This document shows positions 2,123 through 32,077 of a stretch of 64,000 nucleotides of DNA, piece after piece. Both the position numbers and the translations under genes were made by a program. Under the pieces are notes generated by a model. It saw only the letters and a list, made by a program, of their open reading frames with translations. It was not told the origin of the DNA and made no database searches. Numbering within the stretch: position 1 is the first letter of the stretch; the number at the start of each line of letters is the position of its first letter. The stretch comes from Nitrospiraceae bacterium (GTDB lineage Bacteria; Nitrospirota; Nitrospiria; Nitrospirales; Nitrospiraceae): positions 160,001 to 224,000 of the forward strand of contig JBFWWG010000003.1 in NCBI GenBank assembly GCA_050246315.1, given 5' to 3'.

Positions 2123-4261
2123 ATGGCCCAGTACGAACTCGATGTCCTCGACTATTGGATGATTCTCAAGAAGCGGAGGTATCTGATTCTGCTGGCCACC
2201 CTGCTGGTCATCGGCTTCACATTCACCTTTACTCAGTTTATGAAGCCGACGCCCGTCTACGAGGCCTCTTCGCGCGTGAAGTTCGACCGCAGCACGACGG
2301 TCGCTCAGCAACTGCTCGAATCCATCACCTTCGCCACCGCCAACGATCTGACGACGCAAACGGAGGTCATCAAAGGTTTCCCGGTCATGGAACGGGTCGC
2401 GCAGGCCTTGGCCGTGGTTGAAGCGGACCTTCCGCCCGACGCACGGCGATCGGCGGAGTACCTCAACGCCGTCTACAATCTCGGTCAGCAGATCCAGACG
2501 TCCCGTGAATCGGACACGAACATCATCCGCATCACGGCGACCGCATCGGAACCGGATCTCGCTGAGCACATGGCCAACGAGGTCGCACAGGCCTATCGCA
2601 TCGAAAACATCGCCGCCCGCAACCGCATGGTGACCGAGTCACGCCGGTTCGTCGAAGACCAACTGGCGGCGCTGGAACAGAACCTTCAGGCCTCGGAAGA
2701 GGCGCTCCGCGTCTTCAAAGAACGGGAAGGGCAGGTCTTTCTGGACGAGGAGGCCAAGGCGGCACTCCAGACGTTCACCCAGCTCGAAGGCGAATTGAAC
2801 GCGATCGCCAGACAGGAAGAGGAAACTCGGCGCCAGATCGAGGCGCTCGAAAAACCCTCGTCGTCCATCGATACCAGGATCGGACGGATTTTCACCGAAG
2901 ATCCCTACGCACTGCTGACCAAACTCAATAGCCGCCTACTTGAATTGCTGCAGGATCGTTCCACCCTGTTGATCAACTACACACCGGAACATCCGCAGGT
3001 CAAGGAGACCGAGAGCAAAATCGCCAATGTGAAGAACGAGATGATTCGGGAGCTGCGGTCCAAGGCGGCGAGCCTCACGGACCGGGAGCGCACGCTCGAA
3101 CTCCAGATCGCACATTACCGGGAGCGGTACCTGGCCTTTCCCAAGGCCGCCATCGAGCTGACCCGGTTGGAACGCGAGGTGAAGGTCAATGCGGACCTGT
3201 ACTCGACACTCAAGATCAAGCATCAGGAATTGCTCATCAAGAGCGCCGAGCAAATCGAGGAGGTCACCCTCATTGCCCCGGCAGTCAAACCTCCAAAACC
3301 GACTAACGAGCCTAACGTGCCCTTGAATATGGCCGTGGGCTCGATGATGGGTCTCTTCCTGGGAGTGGTCCTGGCTTTCACCCGAGAGTCGCTGGATACC
3401 TCCATCGGCACCATCGAAGGCGTCGAGGACTTTCTCAAAGTGCCGGTGCTCGGCGTCATTCCCACCTTCGACGAACAGGAGCTCCAACAAGCGGCGAAGC
3501 AGGCTCTCCCGTCCGACGCCGAACAGGAGCTGGTGGAGGGGGTGTCCAAGCTGATCACCTTGCTCGATCCCAAGTCCCTGCTGTCGGAAAGTTTCCGCTC
3601 GCTTCGCACGAATATCCAGTTCGCCAGCATGGACCGACGCATCAAATCTCTCCTCTTCACGAGCGCCGGGCTAGGCGAAGGCAAGAGTACGACCGTCATC
3701 AATCTGGCCATCACGCTTGCGCAAGAAGGCCAGCGCGTCCTGCTCGTGGACGCGGACCTTCGCCGTCCCATAGTCCACAAACGACTCGGTCTCCCGCGGG
3801 ATCCCGGACTCGTCGAAGCGCTGCAGGGAAGCGCGTCGTGGCAAGAGGCGGTGCGCACAGCGACGGATCTGATGATCGGATCGCTGGGCGTGGACCGAGT
3901 CCTCAAGAGCCCGGGGCTCGACAATCTGCATATTCTCAGCAGTGGCTCCGCCGTGCACAACCCCAGCGAGTGCATGAGTCTGGCCAAGTTGAAGCCGCTG
4001 CTCGCCGAGATGCAGGAAGCCTACGACATTGTGCTGTTCGACACGCCGCCGATCCTGCCCGTCACCGACGCGGTCGCCATGAGTTCACGGATCGACGGCA
4101 CCGTGTTGGTCTACCAAGTTGGGCGGATTGGGCGAAATGCGCTGAAGCGCGCCAAATTCCTGTTGGACCATGCGCAGGCCAATATCATGGGGGTGGTCTT
4201 GACGAACGTGAAGGCCGAGATCTCCACCGAGGCCACGTTCTACCGCTACGAATCCCGCTAG
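2123..4261 (+). CDS. wzc: Wzc-like polysaccharide co-polymerase / BY tyrosine kinase
   Basis: Two TMs flanking a coiled coil; ESFRSLRTNI, Walker A GEGKST, Walker A' VDADLRRP, Walker B LFDTPP. Confidence 0.9.
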   Translation: MAQYELDVLDYWMILKKRRYLILLATLLVIGFTFTFTQFMKPTPVYEASSRVKFDRSTTVAQQLLESITFATANDLTTQTEVIKGFPVMERVAQALAVVEADLPPDARRSAEYLNAVYNLGQQIQTSRESDTNIIRITATASEPDLAEHMANEVAQAYRIENIAARNRMVTESRRFVEDQLAALEQNLQASEEALRVFKEREGQVFLDEEAKAALQTFTQLEGELNAIARQEEETRRQIEALEKPSSSIDTRIGRIFTEDPYALLTKLNSRLLELLQDRSTLLINYTPEHPQVKETESKIANVKNEMIRELRSKAASLTDRERTLELQIAHYRERYLAFPKAAIELTRLEREVKVNADLYSTLKIKHQELLIKSAEQIEEVTLIAPAVKPPKPTNEPNVPLNMAVGSMMGLFLGVVLAFTRESLDTSIGTIEGVEDFLKVPVLGVIPTFDEQELQQAAKQALPSDAEQELVEGVSKLITLLDPKSLLSESFRSLRTNIQFASMDRRIKSLLFTSAGLGEGKSTTVINLAITLAQEGQRVLLVDADLRRPIVHKRLGLPRDPGLVEALQGSASWQEAVRTATDLMIGSLGVDRVLKSPGLDNLHILSSGSAVHNPSECMSLAKLKPLLAEMQEAYDIVLFDTPPILPVTDAVAMSSRIDGTVLVYQVGRIGRNALKRAKFLLDHAQANIMGVVLTNVKAEISTEATFYRYESR

Positions 4262-4272
4262 TCAGATGAGCG

Positions 4273-5730
4273 ATGGTCTCCTTACCCGACATCCGGCCGC
4301 GGCCTGATTTCCTGTTGCCGGTCCTGCTGGCCGCGCCGGTTGCATGGCTCAGCGCCACCGCAGCACCGTCGGTGGTCCTGGCCGTCGTGGCCGCCGTCAT
4401 ACCGCTCGTCATCTCGTTTCTCTCGCCGTTGAGTGGGCTCTACATCCTGGTCTTTTCCATGCTGCTGGGCCCCGAATTGCTGGTCGGTCAACTGGGCTCT
4501 GGTGCGTTGCTGGGCAGAGGGGTCACGCTCCGATTCGACGACCTGCTCTTGCTGCTCGTCGCATTCGGCTGGCTGGGACGCATGGCCATTTCTCCCGGTC
4601 AGCGGATCGTCTTGCGGACGTCGTTGAATCGCCCCATCGTTTGGTATGCCATCGGTTGCGTATTCGCCACATTGGTCGGCGTCCTCGCAGGACGGGTGCG
4701 TCCCGCCAGCGGTTTTTTCTTTCTCCTCAAGTATTACGAATACTTTTTCATCTATTTCATGACCGTGAACATCGTCACCGACAAACGGGACATCCAGCGG
4801 CTCGTCACGGCGAGCCTGATCACCTGCGGACTCGTCTCGTTGTACGCGATTGCGCAGATACCATCCGGCGTCCGGGTCTCGGCCCCCTTCGAGGGGCAGG
4901 AAGGGGAGCCCAACACGCTGGGAGGCTATCTGGTGTTCATGCTGGCCGTCATCGGCTCGCTGGTCGTCGTCAGAGGCGCGGTAGGCCGCCGATGGCCGCT
5001 GATCCTGTTGGCTTCGATCGCGGTCGTGGCCTTGCAGGCCACCCTGTCGCGTGCGTCGTTCTTGGCCATGGTTCCGGTCCTGCTGGGCTTCGCCTCCATC
5101 ATCCGGCGACGCCATCCTCTCCTGCTCGTGTGGGCCTTGATCGCTGCCCTCGGCCTCCTATGGCTGCTGCCCCGCCCGGTTGTCGACCGCCTCTCCTATA
5201 CCTTCAACCAGCCGGTGGAGGAGGGCCAGATCAAGGTGGGAACCTTGCGAATCGATACGTCCACGTCCGATCGCCTCCGGTCGTGGAAGCAGGCCGGCGA
5301 GATCTGGCTGACCTCCCCCTTATGGGGCAAGGGCGTCACCGGCGGCCCCTTCATGGATGCGATGTATCCCCACGTGCTGACCGAAACGGGACTGATCGGA
5401 TTGGCGGCCTTCGGCATCCTTCTGTGGAGCCTCTTCCGAGTCGGAATGACCGGGTATCACCTTTCTCCCGATCTCTATATGCAGGCGATCAGTCTGGGCT
5501 TCCTGCTCGGATTCCTCGGACTGCTCGTGCACGCGATCGGATCGAACACCTTCATCATCGTACGCATTATGGAACCGTTCTGGCTTTTCGCCGGGCTGGT
5601 CGTGAAAGGCTACATGGTGGCGAGTCCACCTCGGACGGGAAGCGATCATTATAATTCCGGGTCACGGCCGGATGATCGCTCTACTGAACGCCAGTTCATA
5701 CCTGGTCTCGGACCGGTCATTCCTCGCTAG
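4273..5730 (+). CDS. O-antigen ligase/Wzy-family polymerase
   Basis: Multi-TM; EPNTLGGYL, TLSRAS and PLWGKG motifs typical of Wzy_C. Confidence 0.8.
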   Translation: MVSLPDIRPRPDFLLPVLLAAPVAWLSATAAPSVVLAVVAAVIPLVISFLSPLSGLYILVFSMLLGPELLVGQLGSGALLGRGVTLRFDDLLLLLVAFGWLGRMAISPGQRIVLRTSLNRPIVWYAIGCVFATLVGVLAGRVRPASGFFFLLKYYEYFFIYFMTVNIVTDKRDIQRLVTASLITCGLVSLYAIAQIPSGVRVSAPFEGQEGEPNTLGGYLVFMLAVIGSLVVVRGAVGRRWPLILLASIAVVALQATLSRASFLAMVPVLLGFASIIRRRHPLLLVWALIAALGLLWLLPRPVVDRLSYTFNQPVEEGQIKVGTLRIDTSTSDRLRSWKQAGEIWLTSPLWGKGVTGGPFMDAMYPHVLTETGLIGLAAFGILLWSLFRVGMTGYHLSPDLYMQAISLGFLLGFLGLLVHAIGSNTFIIVRIMEPFWLFAGLVVKGYMVASPPRTGSDHYNSGSRPDDRSTERQFIPGLGPVIPR

Positions 5731-28886: not shown

Positions 28887-28955
28887 CCGCGGGTGATCTC
28901 GATAACTGGAATTTCTCTCCTTTCGAGGTATCTGCGGCTGTGACAGATGTTAAAG

Positions 28956-29027
28956 TTGAGACCTGACCCTTTCTACTCTCTTTCTACTCTTTCTCTTTCT
29001 TTGACTTTCTACTCTTTCTACTTTCTA
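28956..29027 (-). repeat. GGGTCAGGTCT-type (REP-like) motif with adjacent stuttered TTTCTAC(TC) repeats
   Basis: TTGAGACCTGACCC followed immediately by TTTCTACTCTC TTTCTACTC TTTCTC TTTCT TTGAC TTTCTACTC TTTCTAC TTTCTA. Confidence 0.75.
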
Positions 29028-29099
29028 TGTTGGTCTGTCGGCCCCGATCTAGCCGGAGGGATGGTCGAAACGGTCGATCAGCTCCACCACCGCGTGTGA

Positions 29100-29438
29100 T
29101 CAGTAGGCGTTGTGCGGCACTTGTACCTGATACTCGTGAGCCAACTGATCGGCTTTCTGGGCCTGTAGCGCATAGGTTCTGGCCAGGTCTTGACTCTGTC
29201 TTGCTGCCTCGGAATCCGAACCCAGCGCTTGGGCTCGCATCTCCGCCTCACGAGCGTAGCGGTCGGCCATGACGTTCAGCTCGGCTGCCTGCTGACGATA
29301 ATGAAACATCAGATCCTGCATGCAGTGATGATCCGCTCCACAAGCCGCTCGTACGGCATCAGGCCCTTCACTCGAACAGGCGGCTACGAGGCCGACCAGA
29401 CAAAGCAGTGCACCCGAGGCCAAATAGCGGGATATCAT
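29100..29438 (-). CDS. hypothetical lipoprotein
   Basis: Lipobox LVAAC; helical Ala/Gln-rich body; AGGAGG RBS upstream on the minus strand. Confidence 0.7.
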   Translation of the reverse strand: MISRYLASGALLCLVGLVAACSSEGPDAVRAACGADHHCMQDLMFHYRQQAAELNVMADRYAREAEMRAQALGSDSEAARQSQDLARTYALQAQKADQLAHEYQVQVPHNAY

Positions 29439-29634
29439 CGTGCACCTCCTGATTCCGACCAGTGAGATCGCCCAGCATCAAGACTCCTACCAGCGCGGCG
29501 CGCCGATAGGAGTCATCAGCCGGACATCCCGGCGTACTCAGGTGAATCCCATCACATCTATTCTGCTCTAGTTCAATTCACCAACTCTTATAGCCTTTAT
29601 CCGCTTTTCTCAGAAGTCATCACCTTTCCTCAAG

Positions 29635-29650
29635 AGCAATCCCTAGGCCG
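29635..29650 (-). promoter_or_regulatory. possible sigma54 promoter for the lipoprotein gene
   Basis: Minus strand CGGCCTAGGGATTGCT = GG-N10-GC with TTGCT, ~200 nt upstream of the start. Confidence 0.4.
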
Positions 29651-29774
29651 TGACCCTCCCCAACAGAATCAATGCAGTGCTTTCAGTGGTTCGCAATCTG
29701 GAGCTATTTCGCACCGTTCCATCTGTGCGCAAACGCTCCCATAGACATCGTCCTGATTCCAGCGAGGTATGAAC

Positions 29775-29836
29775 AAGGGGAGTAATAGGGGGCAAAGGGG
29801 AGTAATAGGGGGCAAGTAATAGGGGTCATGTCTTGA
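29775..29836 (+). repeat. GGGGTCATGTCTTGA (REP-like) motif preceded by two perfect 20-bp tandem copies
   Basis: AAGGGGAGTAATAGGGGGCA x2 (29775-29814), then AGTAATAGGGGTCATGTCTTGA. Confidence 0.8.
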
Positions 29837-30006
29837 TTCTGACAATACATAGGCATTTCCCTCTGAGATAGTGTCCGGGGTTGAGAGGGGGAAGGGACAT
29901 TCTCTTGCTCCGTTGATCCATCCAGCCGGCTTTGCTCGCATCCCGGCCATGCCTCGCACGTCCAAGCCTCAGTGCGTGGGCGCAACAGCTCGCGCTTCGT
30001 CTGGGG

Positions 30007-30173: not shown

Positions 30174-30779
30174 ATGGACACGGGCTTCGACTGGATCACG
30201 CGGCATGGCTGTGTCGGGATCTTCCTGCTCCTCATGCTCGGCATCGTCGGGCTGCCAGCACCCGACGAAACGCCGCTCACATTCGTTACCTACTTGAGAT
30301 TAAAAAGTGATCTTGCCCTACTGCCGTCTATGGGGGCCGCCGCTCTTGGCCGCTCGACCGGCATCAGTCTGAACGATGGAATCGGACGGAGCGCCGGCTC
30401 GCATGTGGTGATGACGCTGAGTCTCAAGCTCCATCTCCGTCCTGAGCAGGTTGCCCAAGGACAGGCGTGGCTGTAGCGGTGGAGCAAGTCGGCCCTGAGC
30501 ATCGCCTATTTCGTGCCGGGGGTGCGGTTTTTGACCGCCTGGCTGGTCGGCGCATCGAACCTGCCGTTCGCCACCTTTGCCGCATTGGCCTCTTGTGGCG
30601 CAATCCTGTGGTCGGCCACCTCCATTGCCCTGAGCACCGTTCTCAGGGAAGAATGGCATCGACAGTCTTCCTTGGTGCCTCGCATCGGCGCCATTCTGGC
30701 TGCCGGCCTCGTGTTAGCGATTACCGTGAGATTGCTCATCAAGAGACGGCGCCTTCACTCAGATCCTTCGATCACGTGA
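30174..30779 (+). pseudogene. dedA: DedA-family membrane protein interrupted by an in-frame TAG
   Basis: LGIVGLPAPDET and FVPGVR DedA motifs lie in one frame, separated by TAG at 30474-30476. Confidence 0.8.
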
Positions 30780-31865: not shown

Positions 31866-32077
31866 CCCGCATTATTCACGACAACTTCTACTGCAACCGC
31901 CGAGATGCCGCTGCGACAAGGTTGGCCGAACCTAACGGGGGCCTACCGGGCGGGCTCGCCGCCCACTCCCTCGACATACTGTTGCAAGTATGCCTCGGGA
32001 CCTCGCGGCTCCGCACGCCCGTCTCGCGCGGCATCTCCGCGGTTTCGTCACGAAGTCTCGTGAATAATGCGGGCTAG
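31862..32077. mobile_element. 216-bp MITE-like element with perfect 20-bp terminal inverted repeats ending in CTAG
   Basis: CTAGCCCGCATTATTCACGA (31862-31881) and TCGTGAATAATGCGGGCTAG (32058-32077); internal arms GAGATGCCGC/GCGGCATCTC also pair; no transposase. Confidence 0.85.

Follow-up and report, generated by a model that had tools for sequence, protein, structure and literature searches.

A 64-kb stretch of the genome of a Nitrospiraceae bacterium (contig JBFWWG010000003.1, positions 160,001 to 224,000 of the forward strand; hereafter the window, numbered from its first nucleotide) carries two inverted copies of a GGGTCA(G/T)GTCT motif, each preceded by reiterations of its own 5' flank. 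Most probably, the two motifs are orphan ends of TIRtrons of the Nitrospira lineage, i.e. terminal inverted repeats (TIRs) of elements that carry a Y1 transposase (TIRYT) gene, and the reiterations, referred to here as stutter, are junction duplications in which the outer flank was copied together with the tip of the TIR, as we infer by a TIRYT acting in trans. Judged from the sequence, the motifs fall into the TIRtron/TIRYT class that is already described, and new machinery is not needed to explain the structure in the window. A first, sequence-only reading of this DNA had proposed a new repeat-addition system that leaves telomere-like scars; that proposal is not supported, as the motif belongs to this class, which is presented in the excerpts of PMC3733652 and PMC6006769 used here. 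TIRtrons are a little-studied but named class of mobile DNA, found here in relatives of nitrite-oxidising Nitrospira.

The motif pair and its stutter arrays

The two motif copies were named S1 (minus strand, near mtnA) and S2 (plus strand). The TIRs and the arrays that abut them are as follows.

28941..28969, minus strand: S1, orphan TIR of the right inverted repeat (IRR) type, with the tip GGGTCAGG at 28969-28962.
28970..29027, minus strand: stutter array 1, irregular AGTAGAAAG / AGAAAG reiterations abutting the S1 tip.
29775..29821, plus strand: stutter array 2, two exact 20-mers AAGGGGAGTAATAGGGGGCA and a third AGTAATA unit abutting the S2 tip.
29822..29846, plus strand: S2, orphan TIR of the left inverted repeat (IRL) type, with the tip GGGGTCAT at 29822-29829.

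The S1 core AGTAGAAAGGGTCAGGTCTCAA (minus strand 28977-28956) and the S2 core AGTAATAGGGGTCATGTCTTGA (plus strand 29815-29836) are identical at 16/22 positions by letter count, and both motifs are thus present in the sequence as the first reading had described them. Their ungapped likeness reaches further in the 3' direction, to ~30 nt in total, with GGGTCA[G/T]GTCT[C/T][A/G]A[C/T]T[T/C]T[A/G]ACA in common. In the 3' half the copies differ at five positions, each by a transition. Translation of the opposite strand gives an open frame ending in VK(V/I)(K/E)T-stop (D-V-K-V-E-T-stop at S1 and V-R-I-K-T-stop at S2); as the two frames end alike, the transitions are mostly silent or conservative. 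S1 and S2 are the sole sites in the window of the exact 11-mer GGGTCAKGTCT, and a degenerate 22-nt pattern (GGGTCAKGTCTYRAYTYTRACA), applied with up to 3 mismatches, occurs there twice, as compared with a mean of 0.03 occurrences in shuffled sequences, none of which (0/100) reached two.

At both sites, the repeats are confined to the 5' side of GGGTCA, and the repeat units are unlike between the sites. At 29775-29815, Tandem Repeats Finder reported a 20-mer in 2.0 exact copies; at 28969-29027, its output consists of irregular arrays that overlap and have periods of 7-16. The longest exact junction repeat is 11 nt in each array; one unit of array 1 includes GTCA, and each unit of array 2 ends with the tip-like GGGGGCA. 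Two further claims of the first reading stand on these data, namely that the stutter is one-sided with site-specific units and, given that the units differ per site and include the motif tip, that each array grew locally. The repeat numbers of both arrays are those of the assembly, which is probably a metagenome-assembled genome (MAG).

The motif forms both ends of a Y1 transposase gene in a relative

A scan of 185,579 species-representative genomes with the 22-nt pattern revealed 15 places, 9 of them in sequences titled Nitrospira, Nitrospiraceae, Nitrospirae or Nitrospirota; ~4 chance matches are expected by our own arithmetic, which assumes equal base frequencies. The copies in three proteobacterial MAGs (L001, L006 and L014) have the same consensus, GGGTCAGGTCTTGA[CT]TTTGACA, as those of the Nitrospira lineage. 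Matches in Dehalococcoidales (L007), Peribacillus (L008) and Streptococcaceae (L015) were set aside, as they show 3-4 consensus differences and no other feature of the family, and were excluded from the duplication statistic given below, its controls and the hexamer count, leaving 12 related places. Strict matches number 1-2 per representative genome; the window has 2 copies in 64 kb.

One of these loci, L005 (4010-5022), is a complete 1.0-kb element with the motif as both TIRs (4010-4031, plus strand, with 2 mismatches, and 5001-5022, minus strand). The left TIR lies 26 nt upstream of the start of the sole gene between them (open reading frame (ORF) 4057-5019, 320 aa), and the IRR encodes the last five codons (316-320) and the stop. 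The product matches Pfam Y1_Tnp with 41.4 bits (cut-off 23) and NCBIfam REP_Tyr_transpos with 89.3 bits (cut-off 80), and its tail scores 29.7 bits on Bac_DnaA_C (PF08299, gathering score 31.5). Most of its best 120 homologs carry a precomputed PF08299 label. Its sole relative in PDB is E. coli TnpAREP (4ER8), in which HMH and YIYINP align with HYH (60-62) and YVVLNP (119) of the L005 protein. The protein family is large: each of the 8000 candidates scored in the homolog search satisfied E<=0.001, and 'REP element-mobilizing transposase RayT' is the source name of many of them. The association with Y1/HUH (RAYT-like) transposases, which the first reading had mentioned, is therefore confirmed, as the motif in L005 constitutes both inverted ends of a Y1 transposase gene.

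The left TIR of a complete element starts with GGG(G)TCAGGTCTTGACTTTG, and the right TIR is an inverted copy that encodes VKVKT and the stop. The opposite-strand reading ...[VI]x[VI]xT-stop is found in 17/17 copies, and KT is the C-terminal end of 90 of the best 120 homologs; the right repeat has thus long overlapped the end of the gene. GGGGWSAS is matched at 8/8 positions by the family consensus GGGGTCAG, with the fourth G present in 9/16 aligned copies. The ends are inverted repeats of 19-32 nt, and the flanks of L005, L004, L016, L020 and L021, read by eye, include no direct repeat across the element, i.e. these elements are without a target-site duplication. The family also includes an internally deleted 188-bp mini-element (L004 5001-5188) and, in L001, a motif copy 26 nt upstream of the N-terminus of a transposase.

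The contig of L001 is titled Gammaproteobacteria, yet this transposase N-terminus (L001 2-208) and its counterpart in L005, a Nitrospiraceae contig, are 92% identical. This suggests either that the gene was transferred horizontally in the recent past or that a contig was wrongly binned.

Assignment of S1 and S2 to the right and left ends

An alignment of 16 copies revealed two continuations after ...GACA, of which TCTGACAA marks a right end running into the transposase C-terminus, and ATTG marks a left end. S1 (AACATCTGTCAC) is of the right-end kind with the IRR-type continuation ACATCTG, and S2 (GACAATAC) is of the left-end kind with the IRL-type continuation GACAAT, common to L001, L003, L009 and L012. 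The body of S1 extends leftwards to mtnA, reading ...D V K V E T stop on the plus strand (TGA at 28964-28966), and 25 of the 29 positions of S1 agree, by hand count, with the IRR of L005. The body of S2 extends rightwards, toward a DedA-like ORF. Hence the outer tips of S1 and S2 face each other over 853 bp. Both tips fit GGGGWSAS at 7/8 positions (S2 GGGGTCAT; S1 aGGGTCAG).

A Pfam scan of the 68 ORFs of the window and tblastn with a family member revealed no Y1 transposase, in agreement with what had been noted from the sequence, and tblastn found no transposase remnants adjoining S1 or S2 (best E 7, elsewhere in the window). S1 and S2 may each descend from a separate element that has decayed, or both may have been inserted as solo TIRs. 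Right-end remnants of 23-52 codons were found in the relatives L002, L010, L011 and L013, which favours decay for the right-end type.

Comparison with known systems

In the excerpts of PMC3733652 (Di Nocera, De Gregorio & Rocco 2013) used here, TIRtrons are described as TIRYT genes flanked by TIRs that share GGGGWSAS; in some cases the TIR extends over the 3' end of the gene, and certain genomes have families of TIRs that stand alone, in dimers or in groups. According to the excerpts of PMC6006769 (Quentin et al. 2018), 20/26 TIRYT belong to TnpA-Y1 subclass 2.1, with Bac_DnaA_C or helix-turn-helix (HTH) tails, and REP-like hairpins do not flank TIRYT genes. The motif family shares with TIRtrons a Y1/HUH gene with long TIRs, the GGGGWSAS tip, a 3' TIR lying over the gene end, a probable DnaA-C-like/HTH tail (with an L005 score below the cut-off) and TIR copies dispersed singly, as dimers or in groups. 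It differs in that the window holds two orphan ends and no gene. The TIR of the Nitrospira lineage (GGGTCAGGTCTTGACTTTGACA) and a one-sided stutter of tip plus flank are not mentioned in these excerpts of either paper.

REPtrons (RAYT/TnpAREP) have a related enzyme, as indicated by the REP_Tyr_transpos score above the cut-off and the relationship to 4ER8, and likewise have a gene flanked by inverted copies of the repeat that is the putative substrate of its product. In contrast to REP sequences and bacterial interspersed mosaic elements (BIMEs), the motif has neither an adjoining GTAG tag nor a stable hairpin; the folds of the S1 and S2 sites on both strands were no better than those of shuffled sequences (z = +1.53, +1.79, +0.57 and -0.03). 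The copy number of the motif also appears low, as judged by the strict matches per representative genome, and the stutter at most sites copies the first nucleotides of the repeat rather than whole units.

The IS200/IS605 elements (IS608, ISDra2) resemble the family in their Y1 HUH chemistry, in leaving the target site unduplicated and in having a short conserved stretch where cleavage occurs. They differ in having asymmetric ends with subterminal hairpins and no TIRs, whereas the motif family has inverted-repeat ends. We know of no flank stutter in IS200/IS605 elements.

One-sided stutter at the ends of related elements

The one-sided stutter recurs at independent ends in other genomes. Outside the tip of L004, AGTTTTGGGGTCA occurs three times. 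L001 has three copies of GAGCCGGAGCAGCAAG(G) and two extra GGGGTCA; at the right end of L005, ATGCAAAGAGTG is present twice; and L009 has a second GGGTCAGG 16 nt outward.

Homologs of TIRYT from finished plasmids of cultured bacteria provided 15 further loci (L016-L030). A TIR pair with a GGG(G)[TA]CAG tip was detected by script in 6/15 of these (L016, L017, L020, L021, L022 and L026), and L018 and L019 have the GGGGTCAG tip on the left only. Five of the plasmid elements start with GGG(G)[TA]CAG. The script found no TIR in 7/15 loci (L023, L024, L025 and L027-L030), which hold relatives 28-42% identical, possibly members of other subclasses; the 32 ends counted below do not include these loci.

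Stutter is present in 5 of the 8 plasmid loci with tips. An exact 14-nt CACTCTGGAGGGTC, consisting of flank and GGGTC, occurs twice in the Legionella adelaidensis plasmid (L016), and GAATAAAGGGGACA occurs twice in a Pseudomonas aeruginosa plasmid. In the P. aeruginosa plasmid locus L020 (539-700), the whole left TIR and the transposase leader are present twice at a spacing of 82 nt, and the distal copy has a tip-only stutter. A Pseudoalteromonas plasmid contains an irregular array of ~190 nt composed of whole TIRs and tip-only units, with four whole TIR copies. In an Iodobacter plasmid, AATAACTGGGGT is found twice at a solo TIR copy. The Skermanella rosea plasmid has one tip-only copy and one diverged whole TIR copy. 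The Skermanella plasmid loci L019 (521-720) and L018 (541-720) are orthologous and lie between MazEF and sulfotransferase genes. The locus of Skermanella sp. TT6 is without the ~54 extra nt of S. rosea; the difference lies just outside the left TIR, and the whole and tip-only copies are in S. rosea only.

The solo TIR of the Iodobacter fluviatilis plasmid (L026 1861-1884, minus strand; GGGGTCAGGTCTTACATTTGACA) is almost identical to the Nitrospira type and adjoins a different TIRtron that has a TIR of its own, AATAACTGGGGTCAGAGCAAA.

The statistic used for a quantitative comparison was the longest exact repeat with an earlier copy within 60 nt and its last nucleotide anywhere from the first G of the tip to 8 nt inward of it. 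A junction repeat of at least 11 nt is present at 9/32 ends (7/26 and 2/6 further ends), or at 7/30 when the two ends of the window are omitted. Repeats of this length were found in 0.35% of 33,878 background windows and at 0/32 ends on the mirrored inner side, and repeats of at least 8 nt were found in 0/96 windows of the distal outer flanks, 150-300 nt further out. With the two sites of the window that prompted the analysis left out, 5/24 ends give a binomial P of 2e-8.

These data show that the arrays are local duplications that are polar, include the tip, recur in unrelated genomes and can vary between close relatives. One-sided stutter is a hallmark of about a quarter of the ends of this TIR class in several phyla. 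In the part of the literature that was searched, stutter of tip plus flank is nowhere described for TIRYT ends.

Alternative explanations of the arrays

The orphan ends could be TIRs as proposed and the arrays could have arisen without the transposase, by ordinary slippage during replication of intergenic DNA that is richer in A+T and of low complexity. The arrays are indeed irregular and purine-rich, the local G+C content falls to 0.48-0.52, short tandem repeats are common in the window (45 rows of Tandem Repeats Finder output at a low threshold), and most ends have no stutter. Against this, the tip of the TIR is part of what is repeated, and the repeats are confined to the outer side, with the inner-side and distal controls both at zero, and an equal geometry with unrelated units is found in five phylogenetically distant plasmids. 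Slippage without the transposase is considered unlikely, though it is the likeliest of the alternatives.

Alternatively, the arrays may be debris of successive insertions of elements or solo TIRs at one spot, most of which was later deleted. Whole TIR copies are indeed present in some arrays (four in Pseudoalteromonas, the pair at 82 nt in P. aeruginosa and a diverged one in S. rosea), and TIR dimers and groups are reported in the available excerpts of Di Nocera et al. (PMC3733652). A new insertion does not produce a flank duplicated with the tip, as seen for CACTCTGGAGGGTC in L016 (two copies), AGTTTTGGGGTCA in L004 (three copies) and the 20-mer in the window (two copies), and the complete elements have no target duplications. 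This origin of the arrays is thus improbable.

The interval between the arrays includes the following features.

29438..29100, minus strand: putative lipoprotein gene (112 aa) with a lipobox-like LVAAC.
29482..29565, minus strand: fluoride-riboswitch-like leader of the lipoprotein gene, with the aptamer at 29565-29500 and an overlapping hairpin at 29514-29482.

The sequence-only reading had assigned to the motif pair a cassette of ~0.75 kb with one lipoprotein gene and suggested that the pair mobilises it. The first part is correct, as the interval 29028-29774 measures 747 bp and has a single ORF. Two copies of a rare motif do occur in inverted orientation within 0.9 kb, and the enclosed gene is a rare orphan, with homologs in only 4 protein clusters, one of them named Nitrospiraceae, of a set of 5.8 billion proteins. 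The second part fails on orientation. Complete elements have the GGG tip outermost and the TIR body inward, and the S1 and S2 tips are directed toward the interval and their bodies away from it; thus, the interval is outside both ends. Moreover, a right end (S1) followed by a left end (S2) is the order expected of two neighbouring elements, not of one. By this arrangement the lipoprotein gene is placed outside both repeat ends and hence is not cargo of an element, and a mobile cassette is very improbable.

It is equally hard to accept that the motifs and repeats are regulatory DNA of the host, i.e. an operator, an iteron or a promoter for the lipoprotein gene or its neighbours. Both motifs are intergenic and flank a gene with a riboswitch-like leader, and the left-end TIR read outward has a TTGTCA hexamer resembling a -35 element by eye; however, a promoter/terminator scan gave 0 sites, the repeat units differ between the S1 and S2 sites, the motif elsewhere forms the ends of a transposase gene, and no RNA structure signal was obtained (z = +1.5, +1.8, +0.6 and 0.0).

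Assembly artefacts of a metagenome bin are barely credible as a source of the stutter: the window and most related loci come from MAGs, many family members are on 1-3-kb contigs, and repeats are hard to assemble, but equal structures are present in finished plasmids of cultured strains, and the arrays are irregular, not collapsed or expanded perfect repeats.

Several other candidates were rejected. A structured RNA at the motifs was dismissed given folds no better than shuffles and no Rfam match at E<=10. A promoter of the extracytoplasmic function (ECF) or sigma-70 type, considered by eye, was dropped as the would-be -35 element is not common to both sites. An integron attC site, a dif/Xer site, an IS91/ISCR end and a tRNA fragment found no support in the sequence and are unnecessary given the link to the transposase. 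An empty target site, in which the tip is joined to its complement, was not found at up to 2 mismatches in the window or any locus, and the tip heptamer is not enriched in the window (6 seen versus 12.6 expected).

Proposed mechanism of stutter formation

Among the causes considered for junction duplications at TIRtron ends, a transposase nick or stall at the tip would be the likeliest. A TIRYT supplied in trans would bind the body of the TIR and nick within the conserved tip, or the tip-bound enzyme would stop a polymerase arriving from outside. The commonest break would be after GGGGWCA, and the resulting 3' end, whether freed by the nick or stalled, would lie a few nucleotides inside the tip. 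It might then realign with flank sequence a few nucleotides to ~20 nt upstream and be re-extended, so that every cycle would add one copy of flank plus tip beside the TIR; ordinary slippage could later make the arrays irregular. The sequence-only reading had likewise supposed that an enzyme cut at the motif causes re-copying of the flank, which is plausible but unproven.

By our own tally, partial tips end most often after GGGGWCA, with a range from the first G to position 10. The junctions of L004 have CA or CAG common to the tip and the flank, which is consistent with realignment on microhomology. The tip is conserved across enzymes that are 30-46% identical, and the TIR body differs, suggesting contact of the catalytic domain with the tip and of the C-terminal HTH with the body.

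Several observations weigh against the identification of the ends or an enzymatic origin of the stutter. Both S1 and S2 deviate from GGGGWSAS by a single position, and L005 scores under the Pfam cut-off for Bac_DnaA_C (29.7 versus 31.5). The 64-kb window includes no transposase gene, action in trans being an assumption. Stutter is absent from 23/32 ends, the inner control reaches 8-9 at two Skermanella ends, and the background of the duplication statistic is mostly coding DNA. The hexamer count is a weaker indication, with 7 same-orientation GGGWCA on the outer side versus 1.2 expected, but 4 on the inner side. The break positions are spread from position 1 to 10 of the tip, and a single nick site is unproven. 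After a first duplication, ordinary slippage could do the rest. The array repeat counts in the window are those of the assembly, and no biochemical test of any TIRYT was found in the literature consulted.

With these points taken into account, it is suggested only tentatively that the stutter is a heritable footprint of a TIRYT nick or arrest within the GGGGWSAS tip, mostly after GGGGWCA, and that it marks orphan ends still visited in trans. If so, stutter would serve as a sequence-only assay for active TIRtrons, the underlying process would be a new, site-specific way in which tandem duplications arise beside genes, and the arrays would mark the cleavage site of an enzyme class never assayed. 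The occurrence of stutter at the outer tips in distant bacteria, finished plasmids included, provides a testable guess at the HUH cut site and a cheap marker of activity. As a hallmark of the family and a pointer to the cleavage site, it is a modest lead.

The lipoprotein gene and its leader

The ORF between the two orphan ends has no Pfam family. A TIR-like stretch within it (29180-29201, 5 mismatches) was taken as a chance likeness, as four homologs align there ungapped.

The leader region upstream of this ORF (29430-29570, minus strand) scored 28.2 bits against the fluoride riboswitch family RF01734 (gathering score 34), with an E value of 4.5e-5 in 3 kb. The conserved GGCUGAUGACUCCUA of the aptamer is intact, and AACC is reduced to UA--C. 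The aptamer lies directly upstream of the 112-aa ORF, with its 3' arm extending into a 15-bp hairpin. The minimum-energy fold (z = -4.19) pairs the 5' half of the aptamer with the Shine-Dalgarno region. The lipoprotein gene is preceded by a leader that is probably fluoride-responsive.

Other features of the window and of the set-aside matches

The left 27 kb of the window (288-27766) consists of a one-strand polysaccharide-biosynthesis cluster with genes for Wzz/tyrosine-kinase, Wzy-like and flippase-like proteins, many glycosyl- and methyltransferases, an asparagine synthase, a DegT aminotransferase and a WecA-like transferase. The orphan ends are located at the downstream border of this cluster, after mtnA. 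On the other side, two adjacent ORFs (30174-30476 and 30513-30779, plus strand) resemble by eye the two halves of one DedA-type membrane protein, and this gene (30174-30779) may be broken; neither half gave a significant Pfam family.

A comparison by blastn of the 24-36 kb portion of the window with the motif loci of the relatives revealed as the sole match a repeat of 211 bp shared with L002. In the window this repeat is a ~211-bp element (31866-32076) resembling a miniature inverted-repeat transposable element, with perfect 17-bp terminal inverted repeats (GCCCGCATTATTCACGA); it sits between a DUF481 gene and the next ORFs and has no Rfam match. L002 has two copies in opposite orientations, which are 74-78% identical.

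The matches in the Firmicutes loci L008 (5001-5070) and L015 (4950-5022), set aside above, are alike beyond the motif and closest to the S2 variant. Both run into a promoter-like ...TGTTATAATAAGG, and this stretch is probably an unrelated conserved promoter region.

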